A stretch of DNA of 63,984 bases, filler included, from Reclinomonas americana ATCC 50394 (Eukaryota), in NCBI GenBank assembly GCA_048213135.1. It is 10 parts of 5 records of this genome, joined end to end, with 100 filler letters (N's around TTAATTAATTAA, not from the genome) between each part and the next. Parts side by side here need not be neighbours in the genome. Positions count along the whole stretch, not along the records: positions 1 to 12,944 come from PS015360.1; positions 13,045 to 26,020 come from PS015360.1; positions 26,121 to 31,651 come from PS015363.1; positions 31,752 to 36,968 come from PS015364.1; positions 37,069 to 42,426 come from PS015364.1; positions 42,527 to 52,555 come from PS015364.1; positions 52,656 to 55,971 come from PS015364.1; positions 56,072 to 59,027 come from PS015365.1; 2 more parts are not named here. One strand, 5' to 3'. Below, piece by piece: positions 4,922-63,984 of the stretch. Positions within the stretch are counted from its first letter, which is position 1. Each line of letters opens with the position of its first letter. Under the pieces are notes generated by a model, which saw only the letters and a program-made list of their open reading frames with translations, did no database searches and was not told where the DNA came from. Both the position numbers and the translations under genes were made by a program.

Positions 4922-7900
4922 TCACAGCGTGCACAAGGCCAGGTTCCGCGCCACCTGCTCGATCGTGTCGAGGGGCCACTGCACGGTGGTGCAGGCGCGC
5001 ATCGCTCGCTGCCAGTGTTCGGGAATCCACCAACTCCCGTGCAGTGCTGTTCGAGAGACGTCAGCGTGTGGACAGGCACGAGCATGTGAAGGGGAAGAAG
5101 GCTGTCGTACCGCCGCACAGAGCTCCTGTGATGCCACCCATCGAGTCGGCATCGCCGCCGTAGTTGACGGCCTGCACCACAGCCTCTTCGGGATCGCGCC
5201 AGTGTCGCGAGAAGGCCAGGAANNNNNNNNNNNNNNNNNNNNNNNNNNNNNNNNNNNNNNNNNNNNNNNNNNNNNNNNNNNNNNNNNNNNNNNNNNNNNN
5301 NNNNNNNNNNNNNNNNNNNNNNNNNNNNNNNNNNNNNNNNNNNNNNNNNNNNNNNNNNNNNNNNNNNNNNNNNNNNNNNNNNNNNNNNNNNNNNNNNNNN
5401 NNNNNNNNNNNNNNNNNNNNNNNNNNNNNNNNNNNNNNNNNNNNNNNNNNNNNNNNNNNNNNNNNNNNNNNNNNNNNNNNNNNNNNNNNNNNNNNNNNNN
5501 NNNNNNNNNNNNNNNNNNNNNNNNNNNNNNNNNNNNNNNNNNNNNNNNNNNNNNNNNNNNNNNNNNNNNNNNNNNNNNNNNNNNNNNNNNNNNNNNNNNN
5601 NNNNNNNNNNNNNNNNNNNNNNNNNNNNNNNNNNNNNNNNNNNNNNNNNNNNNNNNNNNNNNNNNNNNNNNNNNNNNNNNNNNNNNNNNNNNNNNNNNNN
5701 NNNNNNNNNNNNNNNNNNNNNNNNNNNNNNNNNNNNNNNNNNNNNNNNNNNNNNNNNNNNNNNNNNNNNNNNNNNNNNNNNNNNNNNNNNNNNNNNNNNN
5801 NNNNNNNNNNNNNNNNNNNNNNNNNNNNNNNNNNNNNNNNNNNNNNNNNNNNNNNNNNNNNNNNNNNNNNNNNNNNNNNNNNNNNNNNNNNNNNNNNNNN
5901 NNNNNNNNNNNNNNNNNNNNNNNNNNNNNNNNNNNNNNNNNNNNNNNNNNNNNNNNNNNNNNNNNNNNNNNNNNNNNNNNNNNNNNNNNNNNNNNNNNNN
6001 NNNNNNNNNNNNNNNNNNNNNNNNNNNNNNNNNNNNNNNNNNNNNNNNNNNNNNNNNNNNNNNGGCACCGGCACTGCGAGTTTGACAGTGAGTGATAGCA
6101 CTCTGCATGTATCGCATCGCTTCTACAACATCACTCACACTGCATCTTCGGACTCGAGACCCGGCAGACGGCAATCTTGGTTGACCACGCGCATCATGAC
6201 TTCGATTTCACCGGCGCGCTGGTGCTCATCGATAATGAGCTGGATCTTGTCTCGCAGCGTCTCCTGCGCGCACTCGGCCGCCTGCCGCTGCAGCCAGGCG
6301 AGAACGTCGAATTCGGCCGCTCGCTGCACTTGCAGGAGCTCCCAGATGCCGTGGGCCAGCACGTATGCTGTGCATGGATGGGTGTGTGAGGTATGAAATG
6401 GCCGTCACCCCCTACGCGTGCATACCTGGTTCAATGGCTCGCGGATGCTGGTGTGTGGGCATCAGGCACTTCTGCACGACCTGGCGCCACTGATCGCGCG
6501 GCACACGAGTGAAAGCGAAGGCAGCCGGCGAAACGCGCATGACACCGCCATTGGTGGTGCGCGGTTGCTCCGGGTCGGCGGGTGGCGGTGGCTGGCCGTT
6601 GCGAATGGCCTCCAAGACAGCCCGCGTCCGCCGACTGTATCCGCGACCCGTGCAGTGGGTGACAAAGTGGCGCACAATGACTTCCTCTTCGACGTTGCCG
6701 TCGGCCTCGATGATGGCGAGGGCGAGGGCCACCGACCTGCAAGGTGGGAAAGGGGGAAGGGGTGGAAGGAGGGAGGAAGGGGGAGGGAGTAGAAGGGGGA
6801 AGGGGGAGGAAGGGGAAGGGGGAGGATGAGGGATGGAGGATAAGAGAAAGAAGTGAAGAAAGCGGGAGAGAGGAAGGGAGAGGAGGAGGGAGGGAGGATG
6901 AGGCAGAGAGAGGGAGGAAGGGAGAGGGGGAAGGGACGGAGAGGGGGAAGGGACGGAGAGGGGAGTGATGGAGGGAGGATGAAGGAGAAAGAAGTGAGGA
7001 AGGGGGAGAGCGAGAGAGAGGAAGGGAGGGAGGGAGGAAGGAAGAGGGGGAGGGATGGAGAGAAAGAGAGCGAAAGAAGTGAGGAAGATGAGAGGGAGAG
7101 GAGAGACTGCAAGGGGAGGAAGGGACGTGTGCAGAGGGAGAGGGAGAGAGAGACAGCGACGCAACATCTCCGTGTCATCGGTGTAGTGATTGGAGCGCTC
7201 CATGTCGCGATACTGCGTCAACAAAGCAGTGAGCAACCAACCATGGACAACTCGCTCTCTCTCTCTCTCTCTCTGCCTCTTGCTCTCTACCACTTCCTCC
7301 CTCTCTACCTCGTTCCCTCTCTCTTTCCCTGTCTACCTCTCTGGCTCTCTGCCTATTGCTCTCACCCAGTTGCTCCTCGCTCACCTCGCACCCTGTCTCT
7401 CTTTCTCTCTCTTCCTCTCTTGCTCTCTGTCCTTTCCTCTCTCCACTTCCTCCCCTCTCTGCCTCGTTCCCTCTCTCTTTCCCTGTCTACCTCTCTGGCT
7501 CTCTGCCTATTGCTCTCATCCAGTTGCTCCTCGCTCCCCTAGCTCCCTGTTTCTTTCTCTCTCTGCCTCTCTTGCTCTCTGTCAGTTCTCTCTCCCACTT
7601 CCGGCCTCCTCCTCTGTTCCCTCTCTCTTGCCCTCTCCCTCTTGCTCTCTCTTGGCCTCACGCTTCGTATTTCGTCTCACCAAATCGGGGTAGCGCTTGC
7701 GCAGATCATGGAAGAGCACGTGTTCGACGGCCGCACCGAGAGTGTCGCCACTGCAGACACCCCACAGGACGCCCACGGCACGGTCCATGCGTAGCTCGGT
7801 GAGGTCCACTTCGGCAGCTGCGCGAGTCACCGTCAGCACTTTCCGTGTCATAAACGCACACAGTCAGTCAGCACCACGCACAAGCAGCGTCGTCCGCGGG

Positions 7901-9974
7901 CGCCGCTGCCGACTTGACCGCCGACGCAGACGCATCACCGCCATCGGCAATCTCATCTGCCTCGGCCTCGAGTTCGTCCTCGCCTTCCAGATCCAACTCA
8001 ACGGCGACCTCAAGCGACACGCGAACCGCAGCCTCCGGGGACAGCACGGGCTCGCGCAGCAGCACCGACGGCGACGGCAGGAGTGCGTCGAGTGTCGGCC
8101 AGAATGCCGGCTGCAGCATGGCCGAGATCAGGCGTGGCATCAGCTGGTGTGTGGTCGGCGATGGACCCATGGTGGTCACCTGGGCGATGCTTGGTGAGAA
8201 GAAGGTGCGGAGGAAGAGAGAGTTGATGCGCACACGCAACGACGCCTTCTCCGGCCTCCAGAGCACGGTGCAGCTCAACAATCGGCACCATCACGATGGT
8301 GGGAATCTCCGTCATGCAACGCGACCTGAGCACGCATGAACAGAACGAGGGAGACGTTTAGCAATGGGAATGGATGAGCGTGCGCAGGGAAAGAGTGGCA
8401 ACGCACAATCCCTGCTGCTTGGCGGCCTCGTAGCGCTGGCGATGCGCCGCCGGGTCCATCGGCTCCGGCATGTGGTACATGTACATGCGGTACGACGCGT
8501 TGGCGCTGCTCTGCACATCGATATACGGCAGCTTCTCAATCTCCTCCACTCTGCACAGTGGGGAAGTGCGTTTGATTGTAAGCGAGAGACAAGCGAAAGT
8601 GCCTTGACAGTGGACGCAACGGGAGGCGCACTCCGCCGCACGTTTCTTCAAAGAACTCATTGCTGGCAGTCAGTGCAGCTCTGCGGTGGTGAATGAGTAA
8701 GCAGACATGAAGATATAAGAATAGTGCAAGGAACCTCACCCTGCGTACGACCGCGTCTCGGGAATCCAACTGCGCGTGCCGCCAAAGTCGCACAGCTGCC
8801 GATGCAAAACTAAATGAGCGTTGCGCCGAACAAGCAATGGGAGAACGTGATCACCTTGTTGCGACGGCGGCGTCCGCCTTCGACCGCCAGCGTCGCCACG
8901 CGCTGCCCATCGACCATGTGCAGCACAAACACACCCGCACCGGAGATTTGTCGCGGCGGCGGACTGACCATCACCTCCACAGAGACCGGACGGCGTCCCG
9001 ACGAAGACGACGACGACGACGACGACGACAACTGAGAGGCGTCGGCCTCACTCATGCAGGCACACAACGCCATCAGCAACTCGTGAGTGTGCACGTGCTG
9101 CAGCGCATTCTGCAGACGCTCGCTTAGCTGGAGCTCGCGAAAGTCGCCCAGCGACACGGATCGTGGCGGTGGCTTCTGCAGCAGCGCATGCAGCGGAACG
9201 TGGCAGAGGGATTCCATGCGGGTGTATCGCTGGCTGCGAGAAAAAAAAGGTGGGCAACAAGGACAGGAGTGCGTTACGGAAAGAGAGAGACGCAACTTTC
9301 CCTCGTAACACGCTCGGTTCACTGCACACCAGAGAAGGAGTGAGTGGACACTGCGGAACAAGAGACAGCAGGCACACACACACCTCGCGACTTGAATCGC
9401 CGACGAGACAGCGGCTGCTCCACGTTGAGATAAAAGTACATGCGATAGTACTCGCCACGACGCTCACTGCCGGGCACGAGCAGGTCCACGTGCGGCAACT
9501 CCGCCACATCCTTGTCTCTGTGAGAAGTGTGAGAGAACAGCAGAGACGCAGAGAGAGCACAGAGCGCACGAAACGAGAGTGTCAGCAGACGCGCAGTCTC
9601 CTCGTACAATTGTCGAGCGGCGTTCTCCCAGGGACTGCAGTGGGGTGAGTGAGAGGGGAGAGAGACAGTCTTTCTAGATCTGTCACTCTCTGACAGTAAA
9701 CGCAACGTGAGTCGTGCACTGGAGGGACTTGCAGCGTCATGTCGACGACGGACGATGCCGCCAAAGTCGTTGAGCTTGTTGCGTGAGCGGCCGCGACTCT
9801 CAATGCCCTTTTGTGTGTGTGTCAGTGTGTGAGAGAGAGAGAGTGTGTGTGTGTTCGTGATGCATGTGAGGAGCTCACCAGCACGGCGTAGGGCGTCTCT
9901 CCGTCGTAGTCAAACTCGACGATGAAGATGCCGGAGCCGACAATGAAGGACTCGGAGGAAGACGAGGTGCCCAT
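4922..9974 (-). CDS. Fusion protein: tandem Nudix-like domains plus ADP-ribosylglycohydrolase (ARH/DraG family); N gap inside the ARH part
   Basis: Domain 1: GSGIFIV...RNKLNDFGG...NAARQLYEETA. Domain 2: GAGVFVL...RNKLCDFGG...TASNEFFEETCG. A 64-nt GT-AG intron (7818-7881) joins ...DDAAS-AEVDL in frame. ARH motifs: GDTLGAAVE, YTDDTEM, GRGYS, NGGVMRVSP, PTHQHP, GGDADSMGGITGALCG, IPEHW. Confidence 0.8.
7290..7600. repeat. About 150-bp imperfect tandem duplication of CT-rich sequence inside an ARH intron
   Basis: ccacttcctccc...cctcgttccctctctctttccctgtctacctctctggctctctgcctattgctctca..ccagttgctcctcgctc occurs at about 7290 and about 7443. Confidence 0.8.
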
Positions 9975-10306: not shown

Positions 10307-11472
10307 TCAGGCCGGAGTATCTGCTTCGTCAGGCTGCCCTACAGCGTACTCGGGGATGACTGTCTGCACGCCGGCCACCGTGCACTTGTTGGCTAAGCGG
10401 CCACACGCCGCGGGATACACGCCTTCCACCGCCACTGCCAAGCACACACGACAGAAATTCGCTCTGCAGCGTTTGCAGACAGTGTGCTGTGCAGATGTTG
10501 CTCAGCAACAGCACCGATCGTGCAAGCACCGGCACCCACACACCTTGCAGCCATTCTTTGTCTCAAAGATAAAACCACAGTGTGGGCAGGCTCGGCGAAC
10601 TGGAGCGCGGACGCCTGGCAGATGTGAGATGTTCTGAAACCAGAAGCATGAGAAACAGAAGTGAATAATTGCCGGCGACCAAGCGCTGACTGTTACCTCG
10701 TCGTAGGGGCTGGTGGTGAGCAACTCCACCAAGGGATCCATCGTGCACTTGCTGCCGCGCTGGCAGTCGGTGTACGTTTCACCGCACCAAAAGCAGAAGT
10801 CGTAATTGGCTGCAAAGTGGCACGATGAAGATCAGCCCCAAGACGCGATACGAAGCAAGCCAACAAAAGGCAAGCACACAACTTCCGCGTGCTGTCGAGC
10901 AGTTACCACAGCGGACATAACGATCTGCGAGCGGAAACAGTCAGTCTGTGAGGGCGTGTGCGTGGTCATCGTGATCAATTGTGCCCGCACCGGCGCGGTT
11001 CTCGCGACAGCATTCCAGCTTGCAGCCAGGGCATGCCTTCACTCGTCGCATCTGGTGAACGTAGAATCCGCTGATGTGGTCGTCATACTTGTGCCGCTGC
11101 GCGCGTGGAAGTGCTGCAAACACAATTGCATCCGGCAGTTCTTTGTCACAGCCTTTGGCGACACAGCGCACTCGCATGACGGTGACCTGTTACCATGAGG
11201 TTGAATACGTGATGCTGGAATTCGAAAGCATGTACACAACACGGAAGCGCACTTACAAACCTTCTCCACGTCGACCACTCGCACAACTTCAGAGCAGATT
11301 ACCTCCTCACACAGAAAATGACCACACGGGAGCTGCGGTGAACACAAAGTCAACACCTCAACGCTCGACACCAGTGATAGCACTTGTCACTCGCAACTGA
11401 GAAGCACTCCTGATTCTCTGTACACGAGCAGCACATTTTCTTGGAGAGCGATGTGTTCACGCGCGCCGCCAT
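10307..11472 (-). CDS. Compact RBR (RING1-IBR-RING2) E3 ligase, multi-exon
   Basis: Spliced: MAARVNTSLSKKMCCSCTENQECFS|LPCGHFLCEE...RVRCVAKGC (RING1); ACPGC...VRCGNC...FCFWCG (IBR); ACPHCGFIFETKNGCK|HTVCKRCRANFCRVCL (RING2, GCxHxxC with the catalytic Cys); stop TGA at 10307-10309. Confidence 0.8.
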
Positions 11473-14096: not shown

Positions 14097-14363
14097 ATGT
14101 CAAAGCCCGAGAGCGGCGGCAAAGACATCCTCACCGTCCGCAAGCGCCGCATCGCCGCTGCACAGAGCGTGGACAAGCCCCCGACCGCACGTTGCGTGTG
14201 GCACGCGCATTTCGCTTTGTTCTTGCGTCACTGCTGTATTGACCGCAGCGCGTCCCCACACGCACACATCCATTCTCGCGCGCCCGCCACAGGTGCTCTC
14301 TTTGAGGAGACTGAAGCGGAGATTGTGCGACAGGAGGTGCGTGACCTTGGCGTTGGCCTAGGC

Positions 14364-15292: not shown

Positions 15293-17191
15293 ATGGCCTC
15301 TGGATCCAACTCAGCAGAAGACTGGCGCCGCCGGCAAGTCAACAGTCTGCGACGAGACTTTCCCGATCTGACAGCCTCGGCCTCTGGAGACATTCTTCAA
15401 ATCCCTTTCCGATGCTCAGTCGCACCCGCTGCCGGTGTGCCGCCCGACGCCATGCGCACAGTCACACTCACACTCAACGTGTTGCGTACACACACACAGA
15501 GAGAAACAAACACACAAACAATGACAGACGCACAGAACACGCACTCTCCCTCTCTCTCTCACACTCTTTCTCATTCTCTCAGTCCCCTACACACACTCTC
15601 TCTCACACACTCTCTCTCACACACGATCTCTCTCTCTCTCTCTCATTCTCACCACTGTCTGTCATCACTCATTTCCTTTGCTCTCTCTCCCCTCTCACAA
15701 CAGCGCTCTCCCACCGGGGTTCCCCCAACATGCACCCGTGGTGACAGTGACACCACCATGCGCACAGCGTGTGTGTGATCGCGACCCACAAGGACGGGAT
15801 GTGGTCATGCGCTTTAATCCGGTGCGACACACTCACCCTGTGTGTGTGAGTGAGTGTGCGCTCACCCCCCTCCTCTCTCTCTCTGTGCAGCTTCTGCGCT
15901 GGGCCGCGCACTCGTCGCTGACAGAGACACTGAAGAATCTCATTGCGGAATTCAAGGCCTATCCGCCCATTCTGCTGTCGTCGCTGCCGCAGATTCAGCC
16001 GTCGATGCCGCCGCCGGCACCTGCTCGCTCTCCGGTACCGGTGCCTGGTGGAGTCGCAGCGCAGCCTGCTCCACCACAACCACAGCAGCTACAACCGCAG
16101 CAGCAGCAGCAGCAGCAGCAGCCGGGCCGGCGATCACTGCCACAGCGACCGGTGTTGCCACAGGTGGCCGAGTCGTACTCGGATCTGCAGGGACTGGATG
16201 TGCACATGCTTTTGGAGCTCGCCGTGTCGTCCAACTCGTACAAGAAGGAGCAGGCGGCGGAGCTGGAGCGGTATGCGACTGCCGAGTCGCCGTTCTTGTG
16301 TTTTGCGTGTGCGCTGGATGTGGTCGATCAGTCGAACCGGGTGGTGGAGCGCCTCACGAACTCGGTGCGGAGTTTGGCCGACGAGAACAGGCTGGTTATC
16401 GACAGGGTGGAGCAGGATCGGCGGGAGGTGTGTGTGCGATATGACAACAGCTCGCTCGTTCGCTCACACACACGCCCTCTGTCACTGTTTCTTCTCGCTT
16501 GTGTTTGTTTGTCACTCACTTCTCACTCTCAAGCGCTCTCTCCTCTCACTCGACCACTTGTTGTCTTCTTGGCTTATGTTTGTGAGACTCGCCGCGCTTT
16601 CTCAAACAGTCCCACTCTCTCTTCTCTGTCGCCTGTTTCTTCTCGCTTGTGTTTTATGTGTCATACCACGCTTTCTCAAGCAGTCTCTCTCTCTCTCTCT
16701 CATCCTCACCTGCTTCTCGGTAGTGTTTGTGTGTCACATGTGCGCTCTCATTGTCAAGTGTTCTGTCCTCCATCCGTTTCGCTGGGTTCAAGCGCCTCGC
16801 CCTTCTCTCTCTCTCTCTCTTTTTTTCTCTCTCCGCCCTCTCTTATCCTTCCCCCTCTTGCTGCCTCTCACCCCCTTCCCCCTTATTGCAGGTCGCCGCT
16901 CTCTACGAAGAATGCCTGGCCCAGGAGGCCGAGCTGCAGCGGTTAGTGGAGGCCCAGCGAGTCGCCGCACAACGCTACACCAAGGCCGGCATCCACGGCG
17001 CTCTCACCGCAGCCATCAAGCGTGTCGACGCACAGTCGCTGACGTCATGTCGCGCCCTTCAACAACGCGACACCACACCCGACGGCGGCGACGAGGCCGT
17101 GCGACAGTTCCTCACCGAGTTTTTGCCGACCCGCGCCCACTACCACGAGCTGAAGATCAAGCTCGACCTGGAGAGTCGAGCTGGTCAGTAG
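15293..17191 (+). CDS. VPS37: ESCRT-I subunit VPS37-like (UEV-like N-terminus, Pro/Gln linker, Mod(r)-like C-terminus)
   Basis: RRRQVNSLRR...LPPGFPQHAPVVTV...WAAHSSL (UEV-like); C-terminal VRQFLTEFLPTRAHYHELKIK. Confidence 0.7.
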
Positions 17192-17932: not shown

Positions 17933-19312
17933 TCAGCGCTTCGGTTGATCCCACTTGGAGGAGGCAGACTTTTTCAGCGTCGCCGCCTGCTGCAGTTGTT
18001 CACTCGACGCGGCCTCGGCATTCTGCGAAATGCGATGCTGCAGGGCGGCAGTGGCTGCGGCCATGGCTGCGACCACGGCTTCGGAGGGTGCTGCTGCTGC
18101 TGCTGCTGCTGCTGCCGCCGCAGCCGCCGATGACGAAGACGACGACGACGATTCAGGGACGAATTCCATGCGCCCACGCTGCCGCCGCTCCTCCTCCTTT
18201 TGCGTGGCATACTTGTCTTGTCTCGCACCTACTCTGCGTGCCCATTGAGCACCACTCACTTTCCAGCGACCACGACACAGACACGCAACGCAGATTGTCG
18301 AATGCATCCTCCTGCGTGAACCGATCTGGGTTGTAGATCTCGGGCGGAAAGTTGGTGCCGCGTGAGTCCAACCGCATATCGCGCACGCCCTTGTCGAGCA
18401 TCTCGGGATTGCGGAAGTTCTTGCGCTTCTCCAGCGTGGCATTGAACGGGTGCTTCTCGGCCTTGGCCAGGAACTCACAGATACGATCCTGCACGCACCA
18501 TGAACAACAACTCGCCTCTCTCTCTCTCTCCCCCCCGCTTGCCTGTCTCTCGTCGCACCTGCAGTTTGGGATCGCACTGCGCGGCAGGCGCCGGCACCAA
18601 CTCATCGAGTGCTTTCCTGCGCTTCCTCGGCGGCGGCGACACCGACTTGCGCTGCTCACCCTCTCCCTCCCGCTCCTCATCCACATGCATCAGCTCACGC
18701 GGCGTGAACGGGTCCACTGCACTCTCCTCCGCCTCCACCGTAGCAGCAGCAGCCACTCGCTTCTCACCCAGCGGCCGCACCAGCACCGACAAACCATTCG
18801 CGCGCAATCGCTCAGGCACTGGTGGTGGCGGCGGCGGCGGTGGAGGTGCTGCCTCCTCTTCCTGCGCAGCCGAAGCCGCCGCCGCCGGTGGACTGACCAG
18901 TGGCGCATCGCTGTCGTTCCCGTCCTCGTTGTAGGCAAAGATCGACAGCAGTGAGCTGCTGTGTTGCATGCGGGCGCCACTGGCGGCGACAGCTGTGCGA
19001 CAAGGAGTGGCCAGGTCAGTGTCGACACTCTCTTTCTTTGCACACACACACATGCGCGCAACTCGTGGTGTCTGCGGCGACTACTGTTGCCTCTTGCTGC
19101 TGCTGCTGTGGTTCATCGTGGCGGCGATGATGGCGATCGCTGTCGTCGTCGTCGTCGTTGTGATGATGGTGGTGGTGGTGGTGATGATGGTGATGGCGAT
19201 GGTGGCGGTGGTGGTGATGGTGGTGGTGGTTGTGAGGATGTTGCGGGTGGTCCTCAGAGGACTCGTGCTCGTTGTCTTCGTCGTCGTCGCCGTACGCCGC
19301 CAGCAGATCCAT
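17933..19312 (-). CDS. SAP30BP: SAP30-binding protein / HCNGP-like, with an N-terminal poly-His tract
   Basis: MDLLAAYGDDDED start; FNATLEKRKNFRNPEMLDK...GTNFPPEIYNP...EDAFDNL; C-terminal SSKWDQ. Confidence 0.85.
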
Positions 19313-21431: not shown

Positions 21432-22904
21432 ATGTCAAAGGTGCGTTTGCATCGTGTTGTGTTTGCGTGTGAGGGTGTTTATTTTGTTGTCGCGCGCGCC
21501 ATTTCGTTGGTCGTCACACAACGCACCTCTCTCTCTCTGCTGCTGCTGCAACAGTGCATTTGTGTGTCTTGTTCTCTCTCTCTCTCTTTCTCTTCATTTG
21601 TGCGTGCGTGTGCTTGTGTGTTTTTTTGGTGGCGTTGGCGCGCACTTTTTTCTCGTCTTTTCTTTTTGCGCGCGACTTTTGTGTGTGCGCTGCTCACGTG
21701 CGCGTCTGTGTGTGTTTTCACAGGAAGAGAGCGTGTTCATGGCAAAGGTGGCCGAGCAGGCCGAGCGATACGATGGTGAGTGCTCAAACACGCACACACA
21801 CACATTCATTGCTTTTTTTGCTGTCTCTTTCTCTCCCTCTCTCCTTTCTCCCTCCAACGTCTGGTTGTGCCTACGTACGTCTGTGGCTGTGCGCGTCACA
21901 TACTTTTATGTGTTTTTTGTGTGACATGACGCTTTACACTACGCACACACTCACTTACTTTCCTCCGTTTTTCTTATAATACACAGAGATGGTCGACTAC
22001 ATGAAGAAGGTGTGTGCCACTTGCGCGACTCGGCGTGGCGTGTGTTGATATTTATTTTTTGTTGTTGAATGCAGGTGGCCAAGAGCGACCAGGAGTTGTC
22101 GGTCGAGGAGCGCAACCTGCTGTCTGTGGCCTACAAGAACGTCATTGGTGGTGCGTCTTCCCTCTCTTCCCCGCAACGCACCTCCCTCTGCATTGTGCGC
22201 AATCCACTCACCTTACACAGCTCGCCGCGCTTCGTGGCGCATTGTCACCTCGATCGAGGCCAAGGAGGAGCACAAGGGCAACGTTGCGTCGCTCTTCTGT
22301 GTGTCTTTTCGTTGCCCTCCCCTCCGCCGCTCACGTTTGTCTCGTGCGCGCGTGTGTGCAGGCCGCGAACGTGAAGCGCATCTCCGAGTACCGCGGCAAG
22401 ATCGAGACCGAGCTGAAGGGCATTTGCCGCGACGTGCTCGACGTGCTCGACCAGCACTTGATCAAGAACGCGCAGACACCCGAGTCGGTCGTCTTCTACA
22501 ACAAGATGAAGGGCGATTACTACCGCTACATGGCCGAGTTCACCAGCGGCGCCGAGCGCACGCAGGCGGCTGAGCAGTCATTGGTGGCCTACAAGGCGGC
22601 CTCGGATGTGGCCACGGTGCAGCTGACGCCGACACACCCCATCCGCCTCGGCCTCGCCCTCAACTTCTCCGTGTTCTACTTTGAGATCATGAACTCGCCC
22701 GACCGCGCATGCGAGCTGGCCAAGTCGGCCTTCGACGAGGCCATTGCCGAGCTGGACTCACTCTCCGAGGAGCAGTACAAGGACAGCACATTGATCATGC
22801 AGCTGCTGCGCGACAACCTCACCCTGTGGACGAGCGACATGCAAGAGGCGGCCGAGGCCAATGACCAGGCCAAGCTGGAGGATGTGGACCCGGACGATGA
22901 GTAA
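21432..22904 (+). CDS. 14-3-3 protein, paralogue B (6 exons)
   Basis: [31 protein letters not shown]...[22 protein letters not shown]...[10 protein letters not shown]; stop TAA at 22904. Confidence 0.97.
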
Positions 22905-23966: not shown

Positions 23967-25103
<1,137 letters not shown>

Positions 25104-42526: not shown

Positions 42527-42813
42527 CCAGCGGTCCCAACAGTCGAGTTGAGTCGCCGCTGCCGAGTGCTTTGCACCGCTGCTATAGCGTGCCTGTCTCA
42601 TCGTGGCGCACTTTCACACAGGGCATTCTCAACGGCGGCTACGGCTACGTCGGCCTCACTGGTGCCGTCGGACAAGTCACCAGCACCATTGACATAATAT
42701 CCTGGGCCGTGTGCGATAAACCGTTGCGTGTGCCACTGCTGCTGCTGCTTTGCTGTATGGCGACGGTGCTCACTGTGGCCTCCAATGTCTCACAGCGGCT
42801 GTGTAGCATACTA
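42527..42813 (+). CDS. C-terminus of an L-type (legume/ConA-like) lectin-domain protein
   Basis: GYGYVGLTGAVGQVTSTIDIISWAV resembles the YVGFTAATG...HDILSW terminal strands. Confidence 0.55.
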
Positions 42814-46143: not shown

Positions 46144-48245
46144 CTACTGCTCGCCTTCCTCGGGTATTGGTGCGGCGCCGGTCTTGTAGTGCTGGAACGA
46201 CTCGACTTTTGTCATGCCACGCCCAGAGCCGACCACGCCCACCTGCACGAGCAACAGCACATGGTGAGACAACACTTCTTGGCGCGGCATTGACAGACGC
46301 TCGCACCTTGCCGTCAACCGTGTCAGGTGACTTGAATATGCTCTCGCGTCCAGTGACCTTTTTGCCAGGCTTCTTGCCTGTGGCATGCGATGAGAACAGA
46401 CTCCACACACGCAATCATTCGGACCACACACAGACACGTACCAAGGAACTTCTTCCACGACTCCTGCTTCTTCTTGACCTCCTTGTCCTTCTCCTCGTCT
46501 CGCTTGACACGCTTCTCCTTCTTCTTCTGCTTCTTGAGCTTCTCCAATCGCTCCTCCTGTCATCGTCGACATCACGTGAGCACAGAGAAGGGGCAGACAG
46601 ATGCATGGTGGAACGCAACATCCACATTGCCGGGTCGCTTCTTGCCCGAGAGTCCTGGCATGGTGATGCTGGGTGCCTCGGCACCACGCGCCCCCACCGA
46701 CAGAATGCCCAACTCATCGATCGGCCGAATCGAGTGCTCGTCCACCTGCCAGCGTTCAGTGAGTGAACATGCACACACACAACGATCACGCACAGTGCAC
46801 CGACAGACCTCTTGCAATCCGCCGCCCTTGGGGAACGTGACCCAGTATGTGTGACCGTCCTTTGATGGTGCATCCACCGTCTGCCGACACACAAAAGTGA
46901 GGTCNNNNNNNNNNNNNNNNNNNNNNNNNNNNNNNNNNNNNNNNNNNNNNNNNNNNNNNNNNNNNNNNNNNNNNNNNNNNNNNNNNNNNNNNNNNNNNNN
47001 NNNNNNNNNNNNNNNNNNNNNNNNNNNNNNNNNNNNNNNNNNNNNNNNNNNNNNNNNNNNNNNNNNNNNNNNNNNNNNNNNNNNNNNNNNNNNNNNNNNN
47101 NNNNNNNNNNNNNNNNNNNNNNNNNNNNNNNNNNNNNNNNNNNNNNNNNNNNNNNNNNNNNNNNNNNNNNNNNNNNNNNNNNNNNNNNNNNNNNNNNNNN
47201 NNNNNNNNNNNNNNNNNNNNNNNNNNNNNNNNNNNNNNNNNNNNNNNNNNNNNNNNNNNNNNNNNNNNNNNNNNNNNNNNNNNNNNNNNNNNNNNNNNNN
47301 NNNNNNNNNNNNNNNNNNNNNNNNNNNNNNNNNNNNNNNNNNNNNNNNNNNNNNNNNNNNNNNNNNNNNNNNNNNNNNNNNNNNNNNNNNNNNNNNNNNN
47401 NNNNNNNNNNNNNNNNNNNNNNNNNNNNNNNNNNNNNNNNNNNNNNNNNNNNNNNNNNNNNNNNNNNNNNNNNNNNNNNNNNNNNNNNNNNNNNNNNNNN
47501 NNNNNNNNNNNNNNNNNNNNNNNNNNNNNNNNNNNNNNNNNNNNNNNNNNNNNNNNNNNNNNNNNNNNNNNNNNNNNNNNNNNNNNNNNNNNNNNNNNNN
47601 NNNNNNNNNNNNNNNNNNNNNNNNNNNNNNNNNNNNNNNNNNNNNNNNNNNNNNNNNNNNNNNNNNNNNNNNNNNNNNNNNNNGGTGGCGGAATACCAAG
47701 ACACAGATCACCACCACGCACCGCCGTGGTGAATGTGCCGTAGCGCTCATCAACCGCGTAGCACGCCGCACCAGCCTGTAGCCGGGTGACATCGGGTGGC
47801 GCCCAGGCATGCAAGCGGTTCACCTGCAGCCTCACTGGCTTCTGATCAAAGCCGTGATACCTGGGCGTGGACAGCAGCGTGTCAGCCACAGTGCAGGAGA
47901 GAGACAGACAGCGTGTTGTGCACGCAACTCCACTGTGTACTCCAGTTTGCTGTGCTTCTCAGTGACGCGCGCCGTGTACCATCGCTTGTCTCTCTCGTAG
48001 TACGCCAGCACCCAGTCGCTGATACCATACTCGGCCGCATTGGCCTCCTGCACTCGCCCCCAACACAACGCTCAGATCACTGTAACACACACAGAGAGAG
48101 GAAGAGAGGGAGAGAGAGAGTGACTGACCAGCTCGGCCAGACGCACTGCCTCCGCCTCTGCTTGCCGCGCTGCTGCCTGCGCCGCCAACACCTCCTCTTG
48201 CTGCTTGACTGCAATCACTTGCCGTGTAATGGTAATGTACTTGAC
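46144..48245 (-). CDS. SMNDC1: SPF30/SMNDC1-like Tudor splicing factor, central and C-terminal part
   Basis: Tudor-like WVLAYYERDKRWYTARV; C-terminal KQESWKKF...RESIFKSPDTVDGK|VGVVGSGRGMT. Confidence 0.85.
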
Positions 48246-48283: not shown

Positions 48284-49704
48284 TCATGCATGTGTGTGCT
48301 CGCCTGGACCGTGGTTGCACGCGTCAGTGTGCACGTGCTCTGTCAAACCGTACATCTCCAACACTCGTGACCTCCAGTAGAAATGGAAGGCGTCCCGTTG
48401 GCCCGACAGTCGAGCGTGAATGGCGTGCACGGCGTCCACAGAGATGACCACAAAGTCGGCCTTCAGCAGCGAATACACATTGAGGCCATCAACCTCCAGC
48501 CAGTCGACGCCCACCAGATTCTGAGAGGCGCGCTGCACTTGCAACTGCAACCGGAGGGAGGACAAAATGAGCAAACCACCGACACTGACGCACACACAAG
48601 AGACGCAACGCCAACAAATGGAGCTCCGATAAACAGCACCGAGTTCAGCGTGGTCTTGCCGCCGTGTACTTGCGACGGCAGTTTCAGGTTGGACGGAAGG
48701 GAGGAGGGCTCGTCGTCTGCAGCGGCCTCTCCGGGCTCGCTCTTACTCGTGGCAGCCATTTCGGCAAGAGGTGGCGCCTGCAACGCCTCCGGCAACAACA
48801 GCGGTCCCCTGACGGTCAGACCCCAGTTCTCCAATGTCTGCCGCACCTCCTTGGTCTTGATGATCTCCTCTTCTGCCACACACACACTCCATGAATCACC
48901 GCCCTGCGTGCACACACTGCGAGCGAGAGACGCAACGCTTGAAGTTGTTGACGAACGCTGCGTCGGCAAGCGAATCCACAATCACCAAGCGACCCTGCTG
49001 CAAGCGCGCCGACAGCGCGTGTGCCAAGCCGAGTGCGCGCACCTTTCTAGGTAGTGAGTAGTCGTAGCTGCGTGCACGCGGTCCGTGCGCCTTGCCACCA
49101 CCGCGAAACAGCGGCGCCTTGCGATTTCCGTGACTGTGACACTTCCCCGAGTCAGCAGAGGCGGGAGAGAGGAGGCGTGAAGCGAGGGTAGGAGGCGACA
49201 CACGCACCGAGCATTGCCCGATCCCTTCTGCGGCTGGAACTTCTTGCTGGTACCAATGACCTCGCTTCTCGTCTTTGATTGCGCAGATCCCTGTGCGATA
49301 CGACACACACACAGTCAATCACCTGCTCGCCCACATGAACGATAGGTGGCGCAATGGGGGCCACAGAACTGCACGCTTCTTGGCCAACTGCCACACGACG
49401 ACTCGTTGCAGAATGTCGGGTCGCACTGGATCACGCAGAAACACATCCGGGTCCAGCACAATCTCTCCCGTTCGTGACTTGCTCAGCAAGTTGAACACAG
49501 GGAACACAACGCCATCGCTCAGTGCTGCTCGTGCAACGAGCGCGTGAGTACGAGGAGAAGAGGAGAAACGCCATGTCGCACATGTGTGTGCACTTAAAAC
49601 GACGCACCAAATGGATTGGGGACCGCAGCCGCTGGTATGTCAGTGGCCGCCACTGTAGGCACCTTGTGCACCACAGTGGAGAACAACCGGCGCAGCCACA
49701 GCAT
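48284..49704 (-). CDS. MRPL4: Mitochondrial ribosomal protein uL4m, copy 1
   Basis: Presequence [83 protein letters not shown]. Confidence 0.9.
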
Positions 49705-50828: not shown

Positions 50829-51429
50829 TCATGCATGTGTGTGCTCGCCTGGACCGTGGTTGCACGCGTCAGTGTGCACGTGCTCTGTCAAACCGTACAT
50901 CTCCAACACTCGTGACCTCCAGTAGAAATGGAAGGCGTCCCGTTGGCCTGACAGTCGAGCGTGAATGGCGTGCACGGCGTCCACAGAGATGACCACAAAG
51001 TCGGCCTTCAGCAGCGAATACACATTGAGGCCATCAACCTCCAGCCAGTCGACGCCCACCAGATTCTGAGAGGCGCGCTGCACTTGCAACTGCAACCGGG
51101 AGGGAGGACGAATGAGCAAACGCACATACACACCGACACCGACGCACACACAAGAGACGCAACGCCAACAAATGGAGCTCCGATAAACAGCACCGAGTTC
51201 AGCGTGGTCTTGCCGCCGTGTACTTGCGACGGCAGCTTCAGGTTGGACGGAAGGGAGGAGGACTCGTCGTCTGCAGCGGCCTCTCCGGGCTCGCTCTTAC
51301 TCGTGGCAGCCATTTCGGCAAGAGGTGGCGCCTGCAACGCCTCCGGCAACAACAGCGGTCCCCTGACGGTCAGACCCCAGTTCTCCAATGTCTGCCGCAC
51401 CTCCTTGGTCTTGATGATCTCCTCTTCTG

Positions 51430-51463
<34 letters not shown>

Positions 51464-52283
51464 CATGAATCACCGCCCTGCGTGCACACACTGCGAGCGA
51501 GAGACGCAACGCTTGAAGTTGTTGACGAACGCTGCGTCGGCAAGCGAATCCACAATCACCAAGCGACCCTGCTGCAAGCGCGCCGACAGCGCGTGTGCCA
51601 AGCCGAGTGCGCGCACCTTTCTAGGTAGTGAGTAGTCGTAGCTGCGTGCACGCGGTCCGTGCGCCTTGCCACCACCGCGAAACAATGGCGCCTTGCGATT
51701 TCCGTGACTGTGACACTTCCCCGAGTCAGCAGAGGCGGGAGGGAGGAGGCGTGAAGCGAGGGTAGGAGGCGACACACGCACCGAGCATTGCCCGATCCCT
51801 TCTGCGGCTGGAACTTCTTGCTGGTACCAATGACCTCGCTTCTCGTCTTTGATTGCGCAGATCCCTGTGCGATACGACACACACACACACACAGTCAATC
51901 ACCTGCTCGCCCACATGAACGATAGGTGGCGCACTGGGGGCCACAGAACTGCACGCTTCTTGGCCAACTGCCACACGACGACTCGTTGCAGAATGTCGGG
52001 TCGCACTGGATCACGCAGAAACACATCCGGGTCCAGCACAATCTCTCCCGTTCGTGACTTGCTCAGCAAGTTGAACACAGGGAACACAACGCCATCGCTC
52101 AGTGCTGCTCGTGCAACGAGTGAGTGAGTACGAGGAGAAGAGGAGCAACGCCATGTCGCACATGTGTGTGCACTTAAACGACGCACCAAATGGATTGGGG
52201 ACCGCAGCCGCTGGTATGTCAGTGGCCGCCACTGTAGGCACCTTGTGCACCACAGTGGAGAACAACCGGCGCAGCCACAGCAT
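50829..52283 (-). CDS. MRPL4: Mitochondrial ribosomal protein uL4m, copy 2 (probably allelic)
   Basis: Same motifs as copy 1, with a few substitutions (DEPSS versus DESSS). Confidence 0.85.
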
Positions 52284-56568: not shown

Positions 56569-59027
56569 TTACATGAATACCATTACAAACACTGTGGCCA
56601 GTGTCACCACCGCCATGCTCAGCAGCGAGACCTGTGCGTGGCAGAGGATTAGANNNNNNNNNNNNNNNNNNNNNNNNNNNNNNNNNNNNNNNNNNNNNNN
56701 NNNNNNNNNNNNNNNNNNNNNNNNNNNNNNNNNNNNNNNNNNNNNNNNNNNNNNNNNNNNNNNNNNNNNNNNNNNNNNNNNNNNNNNNNNNNNNNNNNNN
56801 NNNNNNNNNNNNNNNNNNNNNNNNNNNNNNNNNNNNNNNNNNNNNNNNNNNNNNNNNNNNNNNNNNNNNNNNNNNNNNNNNNNNNNNNNNNNNNNNNNNN
56901 NNNNNNNNNNNNGGGCAAAGAACACGCACGGTTTTGTTTTCGCAGGAGAGTGCAAACGCAACTGCTGAGGCGACGGCAGGTGCACTGTTGACAAAGAAGA
57001 ATGGATAGAGAATGTCGGGAGGCACACGCGGCAGCAGTGGTGGCACGGGTTTCACAGTCGATGTGCGACCTGGATCGGACGTCAGCACTTGGTCGACCGA
57101 CGCCCTGCGCGTGACACGAATCAGTGACAAAATCAGCACCAGGAGATCAGTCGCATCGCGCCACTCACCGCAGCTGGAAGGTGGTGGTAGTGACACCGGT
57201 CGGGAAGCTCCACGTGCCAGTCACGTACTGCACTCGCACGCCGGCGATCTTCTCCTGCGGGTTGGCCGTGGCACCCTGCCGAGCCACCGCAATCGACACA
57301 CTCATGCCGACGACCAGATTCGTGCACCGATTGCTGGTGGCATCCCACAACTGAGCGCACCAGTAAGTCACATGGCATCCACCCCATTTCTCTCGGCGAG
57401 GTGCACGCAACCGGAGTTGGCACCGAGCCGAATTCCATGGCAAACCACTCGTCGGCGTTCTGCGGCGACGCATTGCCGAAACGCCCGACGAGTGTCGAAT
57501 CGAACTTGAAGGCGTCCCACAACTGGAACCCTGCGCAGATACCACAAAATGAGTGGGCGGACAGCAGGCCAAGATACAGCAACTCGCACGATCGCACCTT
57601 GGCATTTGGTGGCAAGATCCGTCACCGACAGCGTCACACCACAAGTGTATACACCCGAGTTGCCGTACAGCACTTGAGTGGTGCGGATCAGCGAGCCAGC
57701 CAGCTGCGTGTCTGGGCAGCTGCCGCCGGCCACCTTGAGCTGCAGGCCGAGTCGCAGTTCGTTGACGGCCGACCTGGAATGCCACTCCCCTCTTTTAGCA
57801 CACATGCGACACCACTCAGAAATGCACACACACGCACACACGCACCCCGACTTCGAGCCGGCCAGAATTGGATACCCAAGCTGGTAGCCCGGATTGCCGC
57901 TGCGATACAGTGGAGTGCCGGTGGCCTGCGCTCATCACCGTCAGTGCTTGGATAGCTGAGGGCGCAAGAAGGAGAGAGCACACCTTGACAAAACGAATGG
58001 AGAACTCTTGCTGGAGATACGCTGTCGTGGCTGGCGACACCAGCGCCACATCGGTCAACACCACTTCCGCCGACACGCTCTGCACCGTTCCAGCCCCGTC
58101 GTGTGTCACAATGTACGTGACGGCGTGCACCGCATTGTTGCACCGATTGTAGACGACGCTGTCGATGGTGGCCGTCTCCGATGCCGCTGCACGAATGAAC
58201 ACAACAGTGTGAGCATTCTCGACGATTGCATGCACCAGCGGCAAAGTGGGAGGGAGCTCTCACCAGTGTCCACATAGGTGATCGATGACGCCGAGGTCCA
58301 CACGTTGGGACTGCCCTGCCAGCTGACAGACTTGTGCGTCGCCGTGACGTTGATGGCCGACAGCGTGGAGCCAAATGGTTTCTGGTGGCGGCGCAAGCAT
58401 GACATTATTGACGACGCAAGCAGGGACAGACTGTTTTCTCTCGCCGCCACTACGAACCTGGTTCACTGTGTACGCGGCAATGTAGTTGCTGCCGCTGAGT
58501 GCAGCGCATGTCGAGAGTACGTTGACAAACACGGTGCAGGCGTGAGCACCCGACAAGTCAGGCCGTGCCGGCGAGTCGATCATGTACGCTACGATGGGGG
58601 TGAGAAGACGCAAGAAAATCTCCACAGTCACACTCTCTCTCTCCAAATCTCACCAGTCTTCAGCCCGAGGCCACACGTGCTGTCGACCGTCGGTCCCGGC
58701 AGCGTGAGCACACCGCCATTGGGAAACTGCGGCGACACACCGCGCAGCGAGTCCCCAATGGCATACACCGCGGTTGCCGAGTTGGACGGAGCCGTGTTGT
58801 CTTTCGTCGCCAGATTGCGCGCGTAGTTGAACGGCTGCGTGTCGACCACCGCCGACGTCTGCGAGCCCGTGAGATCCGACACGGCGTTGTACAGATCGCC
58901 AGAGAGTGGGCCTGTCGAATCGACAGTGAGCTCTCCCTGCAAATCGCTGCTCGATACGCAAAAAACAACGAAACTGTTGTCGAGGAACACACAGAAGATG
59001 CCGTTGAAGGCCGAGCCCACAGTGATG
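56569..59027 (-). CDS. TCTN1: Tectonic (ciliary transition zone), 5' partial
   Basis: IFCVFLDN, NAVHAVTYIV, YLQQEFSIRFV, RSGNPGYQLGYPILAG, PPDILYPF; hydrophobic tail. Confidence 0.82.
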
Positions 59028-59127
59028 NNNNNNNNNNNNNNNNNNNNNNNNNNNNNNNNNNNNNNNNNNNNTTAATTAATTAANNNNNNNNNNNNNNNNN
59101 NNNNNNNNNNNNNNNNNNNNNNNNNNN

Positions 59128-61426: not shown

Positions 61427-61526
61427 NNNNNNNNNNNNNNNNNNNNNNNNNNNNNNNNNNNNNNNNNNNNTTAATTAATTAANNNNNNNNNNNNNNNNNN
61501 NNNNNNNNNNNNNNNNNNNNNNNNNN

Positions 61527-61572
<46 letters not shown>
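61527..61572. repeat. (GA)n microsatellite, representative of many CT/GA/CA/GT tracts in introns
   Basis: Directly visible run of GA units. Confidence 0.95.
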
Positions 61573-61659: not shown

Positions 61660-63984
61660 GTGGAGGCCAGTCGGCGGACGCTGCAGGAGCGCGAGGATCG
61701 TCTCGAGGCCATGGAGCGGCGCCTCAAACACTTTGAACAACATAATCGTTGCGTGGCCTGCGTTGCTCATCTGCTTCGTGAAGTATGTGCTCACCTTTCT
61801 CGCCCCCCGCACACGCTCACAAATCGCAGGCTCAAGCCCTCACGTTGAGTCGCTCGTTTCCGTGCACTTTGCTAATAATTCGTGTCTCACAATCATTCGT
61901 GTCACACAGCTGCGGTACACACCGACGGCGGAGATGGAGAGTGGCCGTCATCCCATGGACCGCCGCTCGTCCGTGCAGAATCTCGATTTGGCGCACGGAA
62001 CACGGCCGACGCGCGACTCTGTGAGTCGTGTCGAGTCGGCAGTCAGCATGCTAGAGCAGGAGCTGGCGGATAGCATGGATCGCGCCTCGGGCTACAAGCA
62101 GGCGCTGGACGAGTCGCGGTCGGCGCTGGAGAAAACGCGTGCACAGGTCTCTGAGTTGCAGGAGCGATTGCACGACGCGCAGGAGGCGCTGGCCAGTGCG
62201 CGTGAGGAGGCGTCGCTGGCCACGGAGCAGAAATTCATGGCGATGCGCGAGCGTGAGGATGCATTGCGGCGACTCGATGCGCGGCACACGTCGCCGCCGC
62301 CGGAGGAGCTCTATCGGCACCTGCACATGCAGTTGGAGACCGCGGAGCACGAGTCGCACGAGGCACAGTCGCTGCTGAAGAAGCGCGTGGACGAGTTGGA
62401 GAGGACGCTGTCGAAGCGAGAAGACGAGTGGCGGCAACACATGTCGTCGATGACGGTGGAACTGGTTTGTATCACTTGACGTGTATTTGTATGTGTGTCT
62501 TGTGTCTGTCGTTGCTCACCATGAGTTTGCAGGCGGCGGCACGCACAGAAAAGGCGTTGCTGGAGGAGGAGAGTGAGCGAGTGACGCGCGAATTGCTCGT
62601 CGTGCGCGATGACTTGCTGCAAACGCAGCAGACTGCGTCACGCGCGGTGGAGCCGACGGACGGCGAGGGCGACGACCTCATGTCGAGGAGTGCAGATCTG
62701 GCGCTGCGACGGTTCGGGCAACTCTCGTGAAGGCACTTGCTTTGCAGACTGATTTGTCGTGACCTATTGCTGCGCAGGCCCGGAACTCTGGTACGCGACA
62801 TTGCCTCTGTCGCTGTGCGGTTGGATTCGACCGTGGCGATGCTCGTGCGCAGTGTTGTGAGCGCGCAGAGTTGAGTGCCTGTGTGTGCATGCCAAAGTGA
62901 GTCTCTGGCCTTGCTTCTCACTGTGGCAACAGGTGCCGTGTCGGTGGCCGATGCGGCGGCCGTGATTGCCGCGCAACGCAAGGTTGCCGAAGCGGAGTCG
63001 CTGGCCAAAAGGCAGCGCGAGGATATGCAGTCGGTTGCGGAGGAGTTGCGGTCGCGCTTGCGCGACACGGAGGCACGCAACGAGACACTGGTGGCATCGT
63101 TGCAGTCGGCTACAGCGGCGCTGGATCGCAGCAAGGAGGAGCTGACGCGAAGGAGAGATTCGGAGACAGCGCTCAAGGGACAGGCGTCGGCAGCATCAAG
63201 CGCCGCCGAGCAGCTGTCCACTCTGCTGCAGGATGCCAACGCACGCGCAGAAGCGCTCGAGTCGGAGGCCAGCAATTTGCGACAGCAACTGCTGCATCGG
63301 CAGCAACAGCAGGTGACACTGGAGACGGAGCGCCTGTCGTTGCAGGCGAGGCTGTCGGAGCGCGAGCGAGCCGACACCGACAAGGCCGCGCAGCTCATTG
63401 ATACTCGCAATGAGGTAGCCGTGCTCAACCAGTCGCTCATGGAGCTGCGGACGGAGCTCGCGGCGCGCACCGCCAAGCTGGAGCTGAGTGAGGCGGCGGT
63501 GGCCAAGTCTGCGCAGCAGATGCTGGCGCTGGAGATGTCGCTGACGGAGACGCGGCAGGGGGCTGCTGGCGACCGCCAGCGTGTGGCCGAGTTGACTGGC
63601 GCCCTGCAGTCGGCGCAAACCGTCGTGCACGAGCTGCGGTCGCGTCTGTCGGAGCAGTCGAGCAAGGCTCAACTGGGCTCCGAGGAACTGGCCTCCACCA
63701 TTGGCGTGCTGCGTGCGCAACTGGAGGAGCGCGACAAGTCGGTGACCGAGTGGCAAGGACGGGCGGCGTCACACGAGCGGAGTGCAAAGGAGGCTGAGGC
63801 CTTGGTGAATTCGCTGCGAACGCAACTGGCGGTACAGTCGAACAAGGCGCAGCAGGGTGTGGAGGAGCGCGACAAGGCTGTGGCAGAGTGGCAGGGACGA
63901 GCGGCGTCGCACGAGCGGAGTGCCAAGGAGGCTGAGACGTTGGTGAACTCGCTGCGTTCGCAACTGGCGGAGCAGTCGAACAAC
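61660..63984 (+). CDS. Long coiled-coil protein fragment with 46-aa tandem repeats
   Basis: E/A/L/R/Q-rich exons; GAGGAGCGCGACAAG recurs at 63724 and 63862 (138-bp period). Confidence 0.7.

Follow-up and report, generated by a model that had tools for sequence, protein, structure and literature searches.

Displaced pairing between U1 small nuclear RNA (snRNA) and the 5' splice site has been described in human introns. A register shifted by one nucleotide (+1) was reportedly found at atypical human 5' splice sites by Roca and Krainer in 2009, and a register of human 5' splice sites with a bulge at +2/+3 is said to have been described by Roca et al. in 2012. We report here on a second class of 5' splice site, GTTGCGT (GUUGCGU in the RNA), in a 63,984-base stretch of DNA from Reclinomonas americana ATCC 50394 (assembly GCA_048213135.1), referred to below as the window. 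According to PMC4856993, the shifted register and the +2/+3 bulge are two displaced U1 schemes known from human sites, and validated noncanonical registers make up 1.5% of 201,541 human 5' splice sites.

The human shifted register resembles the class in the window in several respects: the cut is at N/GU (a slash marks the cut throughout), complementarity to U1 lies one nucleotide deeper, G+1 replaces G−1, and the −1 base is not G. However, the human noncanonical registers are rare and each is a suboptimal variant of GUAAGU, whereas the shifted form accounts for about 12-20% of the introns of the window. Unlike the human sites, it has a tight consensus of its own and is preferred after C despite a weaker prediction with standard U1. 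The human +2/+3 bulge is alike in that its sites begin with GUU and the core behind matches U1 if one U is skipped; it gains from G at −1, but here G at −1 is nearly absent. A further likeness is to the pair of 5' splice site classes in PMC11732430, which are anti-correlated, with one dependent on the end of the exon and the second on the intron side. These two classes keep the intron motif in one register, whereas here the exon-independent class is displaced by one base; moreover, the exon-dependent class here also keeps a strong intron motif, unlike its counterpart there. What is new in the window is a shifted-type donor at 12-20% of introns, with a tight consensus and dependent on the last exon base. 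No description of a GTTGCG/GUUGCG donor class was found in the literature searched, subscription journals and supplements being outside its scope.

The window has a GC content between 46% and 59% in 4-kb steps and contains 5,286 N. Introns were predicted with a Viterbi gene parser built from a three-periodic coding model, an acceptor matrix and an intron length prior. In the donor-agnostic parse GT was the only donor information, and 110 introns with a median length of 74 nucleotides (nt) were obtained. When a single donor matrix was iterated, GTTGCG donors fell from 8 in iteration 2 to 3 in iteration 5, the class being progressively lost, and at low penalties the iteration diverged; for these reasons the donor-agnostic run and runs with a two-class donor mixture were used instead. 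The first two-class run gave 113 introns, 17 of them with GTTGCG, and the run with introns capped at 170 nt gave 125 introns, 19 of them with GTTRNGT. Donors of the form GTNNGT are called canonical (class 1) and those of the form GTTRNGT shifted (class 2), so that A or G at +4 of the shifted class is preset. A local coding-score test against decoy dinucleotides gave no separation (at threshold 25, 75 GT sites against 49 expected) and was dropped because a true donor scores no differently from other positions in its frame.

A preliminary description of this DNA had listed 23 GTTGCG donors. All 23 are present on the strand assigned to them, and the base at −1 is never G (C in 14, A in 6, T in 3). 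The base at +7 is T in 20, completing GTTGCGT; the exceptions are 11397 (GTTGCGA), 19062 and 24157 (GTTGCGC in both). Counted on both strands, GTTGCG has 90 occurrences; dinucleotide shuffles give 63.2 +/- 7.6, and 0/100 of them reach 90. Inside predicted gene spans the heptamer GTTGCGT (42 copies) is found 25 times in sense and 8 times in antisense orientation, and GTTGCG followed by A, C or G 9 times in sense and 24 times in antisense. In the donor-agnostic parse GTTGCG is the donor hexamer of 12/110 introns, where 1.28 are expected from its share among all 7,751 GT dinucleotides of the window (binomial p=7.4e-9), an enrichment of about ninefold. By the same calculation GTGCGT is the donor of 13/110 introns (1.9 expected, p=6e-8), and these two are the commonest donor hexamers of that parse. 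The shifted class as a whole amounts to 13/110 introns in the donor-agnostic and 19/125 in the two-class parse, which bears out the earlier proposal of a real and frequent second donor class. Its share of the predicted introns is thus about 12-15%, which curation raises to about 20%; roughly one intron in six is of this class. These results indicate, with high confidence, that GTTGCGT donors are a real second class of 5' splice site.

Conserved proteins had been said to fix the reading frames, and for seven of the 23 listed sites this was confirmed by homology. Together with one junction in a Tectonic-like gene, the homology-confirmed junctions number eight: one each in 14-3-3, LC8, ADP-ribosylglycohydrolase and Tectonic-like genes, two in a GST gene and two in the gene for mitochondrial uL4 (uL4m). 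The introns concerned, with the twins of the uL4m pair, are as follows.

22283..22361, plus strand: 14-3-3 gene, intron of 79 nt, AAC/GTTGCGTCG...CAG/GC, picked in all parses.
24091..24157, minus strand: LC8 dynein light chain gene, intron of 67 nt, GAA/GTTGCGCCT...CAG/GT.
33493..33561, plus strand: GST gene, intron of 69 nt, GGC/GTTGCGTCA...CAG/TC, after a 12-nt micro-exon at 33481-33492.
33727..33810, plus strand: GST gene, intron of 84 nt, GAC/GTTGCGTCT...CAG/TC.
48545..48609, minus strand: mitochondrial uL4 gene, intron of 65 nt, GGC/GTTGCGTCT...CAG/TT.
48873..48936, minus strand: mitochondrial uL4 gene, intron of 64 nt, AGC/GTTGCGTCT...CAG/AA, picked in all parses.
51090..51163, minus strand: twin of the 48609 intron in a near-identical second uL4m locus, found in the parses and counted once with 48609.
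51427..51510, minus strand: twin of the 48936 intron in the second uL4m locus, found in the parses and counted once with 48936.
6737..7165, minus strand: ADP-ribosylglycohydrolase gene, intron of 429 nt, GAT/GTTGCGTCG...CAG/GT.
57351..57411, minus strand: Tectonic-like gene, intron of 61 nt, CCG/GTTGCGTGC...CAG/TT, the sole case with G at −1.

At all eight tested junctions removal of the intron restores the conserved protein without a gap. The 14-3-3 junction, KGN/AANVKR, aligns gap-free with 6 homologues and with a paralogue in the window that does not have the 22283 intron. The two 14-3-3 paralogues stand head to head (19667-20716 on the minus and 21739-22904 on the plus strand), have two intron positions in common and one private intron each; the best 14-3-3 matches are fungal or aphelid proteins at no more than 76% identity, none of them near-identical. 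In the LC8 gene, exon 2 corresponds to residues 21-48 and exon 3 to residues 50-89 of the PDB chains 3brl_A and 1rhw_A, with one split codon between them. The GST gene spliced across 33493 reads YWGIKARAQLP, and across 33727 LKPQT/HFGQLP, each gap-free against 5 GST homologues. The 12-nt micro-exon ahead of 33493 and one of 14 nt at 61830-61843 (both plus strand) both end at shifted donors, and both were missed by the parsers.

Alignment to 9 bacterial L4 proteins shows no gap at the uL4m junction at 48609, and the exon downstream of it matches Pfam Ribosomal_L4. At the position of the 48936 intron the closest relative of the uL4m exon in the database, P0121 (72% identity, encoded on a 901-nt contig), has a 30-residue insertion resembling a read-through intron. 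The P0121 gene call thus reads through an apparent intron, which means that a related organism is present in public data. The two uL4m copies (47684-49704 and 50829-52283, both on the minus strand) are near-identical and have all five introns in common (95-100% identity), with a gap of 848 N between them; they may represent either a duplication in tandem or contigs that are allelic or redundant. In the ADP-ribosylglycohydrolase gene the exon ends with ..HYTDDTE plus AT, and the first base of the next exon, G, completes ATG (Met); the Pfam ADP_ribosyl_GH profile is followed to position 44 at about 7641 and picked up again at position 56 at about 6732. This intron is CT-rich, in frame and stop-free and, if retained, would read as a low-complexity insertion. 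In 17/17 aligned homologues of the Tectonic-like gene the linker has at least 12 residues; a donor at 57411 yields 12 residues, in agreement with this, but the in-frame alternative at 57423 yields only 8.

The choice between the two donor forms is linked to the last base of the exon. In the donor-agnostic parse G stands at −1 of 0/13 GTTRNGT donors and of 31/37 GTNNGT donors (Fisher 7.6e-8), and in the two-class parse of 1/19 shifted and 45/53 canonical donors (6e-10), so the proposed tie to non-G exon ends is upheld. Its strict form, in which G is wholly excluded, is not, since the donor at 57411 is a homology-backed G/GTTGCGT. Among 26 curated unique GTTGCG sites G is found at −1 once, against 85% of canonical donors; set against the exonic background, 1/26 differs significantly from the 26% G found before GT (p=0.004) but not from the 14% found before GTT (p=0.09). 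Because the deficit is marginal against the GTT background, selection for G has been lost at shifted donors while its avoidance is unproven: G at −1 appears to be unselected there, and is not shown to be avoided. For C the contrast is even sharper. It is found at −1 of 0/53 canonical donors, although the exonic background before GT is 0.29 (p=1.3e-8), and of 11/19 shifted donors. Exons ending in A or T take either form, as in 7881 (CTT/GTGCGT) and 8406 (ATT/GTGCGT). The former, picked in all parses, bears out the view that the rule is one-way, GTGCGT donors after non-G ends (H/GTGCGT) being present. The shifted form is thus used almost only after non-G ends, chiefly after C, a base that no canonical donor followed.

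The class is also more uniform than the canonical one. GTTGCGT is read in 17/19 shifted donors, with G at +4 in 19/19 (within the preset A or G) and C at +5 in 17/19, whereas the equivalent canonical positions have G in 35/53 and C in 27/53. T at +3 does not by itself define the class, for it is combined with G at −1 and the normal register in G/GTTTGT (33869, 34705, 62465) and G/GTTCGT (58457, 38855). At +4 the canonical donors of this genome segment most often have C (27/53); GTAAGT is uncommon (7 copies, both strands counted). The suggestion that GTTGCGT is GGTGCGT displaced by one base agrees with the intron side of the class, which from +3 onward repeats the main consensus from +2 onward. 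Shifted forms of other cores are found as well: GTTGAGT at 61844 (CAC/GTTGAGTCG, noted near this position before) and at 62870, GTTGTGT at 29035 and GTTTCGT at 9574.

An internal repeat allows the two forms to be compared at the same junction. In the gene at 9974-7582 (minus strand) a domain is duplicated internally (local alignment score 148), and three intron positions are homologous between the halves and in the same phase. The duplicated domain has about 170 residues and no Pfam match, and carries the motifs NKLxDFGG, EET and YRMYxY. The shifted-donor introns between 9974 and 7582 are these.

8180..8240, minus strand: intron of 61 nt, GTC/GTTGCGTGT, picked in the two-class parses.
8551..8620, minus strand: intron of 70 nt, CCC/GTTGCGTCC, two-class parse, at a position homologous to the 9574 intron.
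9234..9296, minus strand: intron of 63 nt, AAA/GTTGCGTCT, two-class parses, at a position homologous to the 8406 intron (ATT/GTGCGTT).
9518..9574, minus strand: intron of 57 nt, CTC/GTTTCGTGC, shifted form of G/GTTCGT, supported by the two-class parse and the internal-repeat comparison.
9635..9706, minus strand: intron of 72 nt, CAC/GTTGCGTTT, two-class parse, at a position homologous to the 8739 intron (AGG/GTGAGGT).

The paired donors are C/GTTGCGT at 9706 and G/GTGAGGT at 8739, C/GTTTCGT at 9574 and C/GTTGCGT at 8620, and A/GTTGCGT at 9296 and T/GTGCGTT at 8406. These three homologous pairs indicate that the two donor forms swap without movement of the junction. In the single pair in which G at −1 is opposed to C (8739 and 9706), the class tracks the base.

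Besides the seven listed sites checked by homology, a further 11 of the 23 (8240, 8620, 9296, 9706, 18289, 30821, 36161, 39611, 39848, 44935 and 61748) were either picked in one or more of the parses or judged by eye to fit open frames. GTTGCG donors beyond the 23 were found at 46619, 47928 and 57411, plus 51163 and 51510 in the duplicate copy. In an open-frame test, which is weak in GC-rich sequence and in which the phase sometimes differs from the parse, 17/25 introns were not readable through, that is, had a length not divisible by 3 or an in-frame stop. The remaining shifted-donor introns are given below.

18217..18289, minus strand: intron of 73 nt, TGC/GTTGCGTGT, all parses.
29035..29119, plus strand: intron of 85 nt, ACA/GTTGTGTGG, shifted form of G/GTGTGT, all parses.
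30821..30890, plus strand: intron of 70 nt, CGA/GTTGCGTGC, all parses.
36161..36229, plus strand: intron of 69 nt, ACC/GTTGCGTTC, all parses.
39179..39611, minus strand: probable long intron of 433 nt, purine-rich, in a LisH/WD40 gene, CGA/GTTGCGTGG, picked in the donor-agnostic and one two-class parse, with a putative acceptor.
39786..39848, minus strand: intron of 63 nt in the LisH/WD40 gene, TCC/GTTGCGTTG, two-class parse.
44935..45010, plus strand: intron of 76 nt in a gene with a USP7_C2 domain, ACT/GTTGCGTCG, two-class parses.
46557..46619, minus strand: intron of 63 nt, GAT/GTTGCGTTC, all parses, outside the 23.
47861..47928, minus strand: intron of 68 nt, GGA/GTTGCGTGC, all parses, outside the 23.
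61748..61829, plus strand: intron of 82 nt, ATC/GTTGCGTGG, followed by the 14-nt micro-exon, frames by eye.
61844..61909, plus strand: intron of 66 nt, CAC/GTTGAGTCG, shifted form of G/GTGAGT, frames by eye.
62870..62932, plus strand: intron of 63 nt, AGA/GTTGAGTGC, two-class parses.

In the LisH/WD40 gene a Pfam WD40 repeat ends at about 39614, directly before the 39611 donor. The 61748 intron was missed by the parsers because a contig-join linker lies directly upstream of it. Five listed sites are candidates on sequence alone, and may belong to introns in untranslated regions (UTRs).

11391..11397, minus strand: donor candidate TCA/GTTGCGA.
14191..14197, plus strand: candidate 5'-UTR intron donor CAC/GTTGCGT.
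15481..15487, plus strand: donor candidate CGT/GTTGCGT.
18993..19062, minus strand: candidate 5'-UTR intron of 70 nt, CGA/GTTGCGCGC...CAG, shortly upstream of an ATG at 18969.
42723..42729, plus strand: donor candidate ACC/GTTGCGT, for which no acceptor above thresholds was found within 200 nt.

Apart from the donor, the introns of the two classes are alike. All listed sites have GT at the 5' end. The acceptor is CAG in 17/19 shifted introns (TAG in 1, AAG in 1) and in 50/53 canonical ones. A branch-like CT[ACG]A[CT] motif lies 7-50 nt before the AG in 12/19 shifted introns (3.6 expected from shuffles) and in 34/53 canonical introns (9.9 expected), and the median length in the two-class parse is 69 nt for both classes. 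By these features the shifted-donor introns are ordinary U2-type GT-AG introns which differ only at the 5' splice site. Two other identities were rejected. U12-type introns, whose 5' consensus is /RTATCCTT, are also a second 5' splice site class with a rigid consensus; their donor, however, is unrelated to GTTGCGT, and the 3' ends and branch motifs of the shifted class are those of the main class. A family of introners was rejected because the shifted introns share no sequence along their length. In an all-against-all blastn search of the 125 predicted introns 14 pairs were found at E<=1e-3, namely the five intron pairs of the duplicated uL4m gene and nine short matches of 15-31 nt, mostly simple repeats; the only pairs between shifted introns were 51510/48936 and 51163/48609.

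The preliminary description had proposed a mainstream mode that implies dual-register U1/U6 recognition or a variant snRNA. In our shifted-register reading, the snRNAs would read the core UGCGU one nucleotide further into the intron than usual. Intron G+1 would take the place of exon G−1 opposite C9 of U1, U+2 would be left unpaired, and the cut would still be set 5' of GU by the catalytic core (U6/U5). The −1 base would fall outside the U1 helix; G would then no longer be selected there, and the remaining motif would have to be near-perfect. We consider the chances of this reading to be evenly balanced.

Pairing with standard U1 gives it a mixed reception. Counted by hand, with a U1 from which that of the host may differ, a site of the class forms 7 pairs and has 2 mismatches in the shifted register; in the canonical register that same site forms 4 weak pairs. 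RNAduplex with standard U1 gives −1.4 to −1.5 kcal/mol, with the shifted fold for A/GUUGCGU and not for C/GUUGCGU. The duplex energies with the standard U1 5' end are −3.3 kcal/mol for C/GUGCGU, −1.4 for C/GUUGCGU and −6.7 for G/GUUGCGU. These energies predict the opposite preference to that seen, so ordinary U1 pairing fails to explain the use of the shifted form after non-G ends. A factor beyond standard U1 pairing energy must therefore favour it there; candidates are a required G opposite C9, a shifted hand-over to U6, compensation of weak contacts between C ends and U5 loop 1, by the logic of the two classes in PMC11732430, and a variant U1.

Several further points weigh against the shifted-register reading, or limit what is built on it. 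After C, the shifted site pairs worse with standard U1 than the canonical one, by the values just given (−1.4 against −3.3 kcal/mol). The exon-side preference stays put rather than moving with the register: at −2 of class 1 the bases are A19 T19 C7 G8, and at −1 of class 2 they are C11 A5 T2 G1. One G/GTTGCGT donor exists (57411), so that G at −1 is not excluded. Five of the 23 listed sites (11397, 14191, 15481, 19062, 42723) are outside recognisable coding sequence and are candidates only. The junctions rest on homology and gene parsing, and in the two-class parse 53/125 donors fall into neither class ("other"), surely including false calls. The sample is a single 64-kb window, itself made of chained contigs.

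That the class arises from chance GTTGCG hexamers or misplaced junctions in GC-rich, stop-poor sequence seems hardly credible. Long open frames do occur in all six frames, the local coding-score test has no nucleotide resolution, and five of the 23 sites are the sequence-only candidates listed above; but homologues or solved structures pin eight junctions to the exact residue, GTTGCGT has a strand bias of 25 to 8, and its enrichment in the donor-agnostic parse is about ninefold. Among explanations that accept the class, U1 might remain unshifted, and a weak exon side be compensated by a strong intron side through U5 and U6 or through a protein. Exon ends unable to pair with U5 loop 1, especially C, would then need a better motif for the U6 ACAGA box or for binding of a factor, here GUUGCGU. 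The strong anti-correlation between G at −1 and the intron side suits this explanation, as does the behaviour of C, the worst partner for the U-rich U5 loop, C ends taking the shifted class in 11/16 cases; so too does the failure of standard-U1 energies to account for the class. On the other hand, the canonical class combines G at −1 with a strong intron side, which is no simple see-saw, and in the normal register GUUGCGU would probably give no pairs to the ACA of U6 at +4 to +6, so that U6 would itself have to shift. We also know of no factor that binds UGCGU. A framework of two donor classes has reportedly been established in animals, plants and fission yeast (PMC11732430; PMC9803359; PMC11842720), and compensation, although unlikely on balance, is to be taken seriously.

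The near-absence of G at −1 bears on how a displaced register could be formed. If G+1 and U+2 were paired normally and one U were bulged, GCGU would pair as +3 to +6. In humans the bulge at +2/+3 is a proven register, for which Table 3 of PMC4856993 gives 68 predicted sites and 54 curated ones. With RNAduplex, G/GUUGCGU takes an internal-loop or bulge fold at −6.7 kcal/mol. A bulge would nevertheless keep −1 opposite C9 of U1, so that G/GTTGCGT would be expected at least as often as the 85% of canonical donors, whereas G at −1 is observed in 0/13, 1/19 and 1/26 sites. The shifted scheme is thus favoured over the bulge, which we regard as very unlikely. A variant U1, or one with an altered 5' end, could also be fully complementary to GUUGCGU while standard U1 reads G/GUGCGU. 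U1 variant genes are known in animals; the uniformity of the class is unusual (GTTGCGT 17/19, G at +4 in 19/19), and its preference is not derivable from the standard U1 5' end. To our knowledge, however, eukaryotes show hardly any variation in the U1 5' end, and a perfect match should still, through the next nucleotide of that U1, favour a pairing base at −1, of which none is evident beyond C; this alternative is distinctly unlikely. An Rfam scan of the window at the gathering threshold found one transfer RNA (tRNA) and no snRNA gene.

That tRNA was identified by ARAGORN as tRNA-Phe (GAA) at 38045-38119 on the minus strand, near the 3' end of the LisH/WD40 gene. Long microsatellites of (GA)n, (CA)n and (GT)n are present, often at contig ends and inside introns, e.g. 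at 61527-61572. The contigs are joined by nine identical linkers of 44 N, TTAATTAATTAA and 44 N, a spacer with stops in all six frames of the type used for contig chaining.

Linkers: 12945-13044, 26021-26120, 31652-31751, 36969-37068, 42427-42526, 52556-52655, 55972-56071, 59028-59127, 61427-61526.

With these nine stop linkers the window is a pseudo-scaffold, and the contiguity of genes and neighbours across a linker is uncertain.

Taken together, it is possible, though we put it forward only tentatively, that a 5' splice site shifted by one nucleotide is a mainstream, selected mode in this organism, in which non-G exon ends, especially C, are read through a dedicated route. Such a route might consist of a further U1 whose 5' end is altered, an obligatory G:C9 contact that intron G+1 is able to provide, or a shifted hand-over to U6. 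If this is true, where the cut is made would be uncoupled, genome-wide, from the register in which the snRNAs pair. How a cut site is fixed while snRNA pairing is out of register has so far been examined at only a few rare human sites. An organism with about one intron in six shifted would be a natural test bed at the genome scale, since the form used goes with the last base of the exon and paralogues exchange one form for the other at a shared junction. Gene finders with one donor matrix lose the shifted class, as may be expected from our own single-matrix run, in which GTTGCG donors dropped from 8 to 3, and would mis-annotate a sizeable share of genes, micro-exons included. Such an organism could also separate the roles of U1, U5 and U6 in the choice of the 5' splice site.

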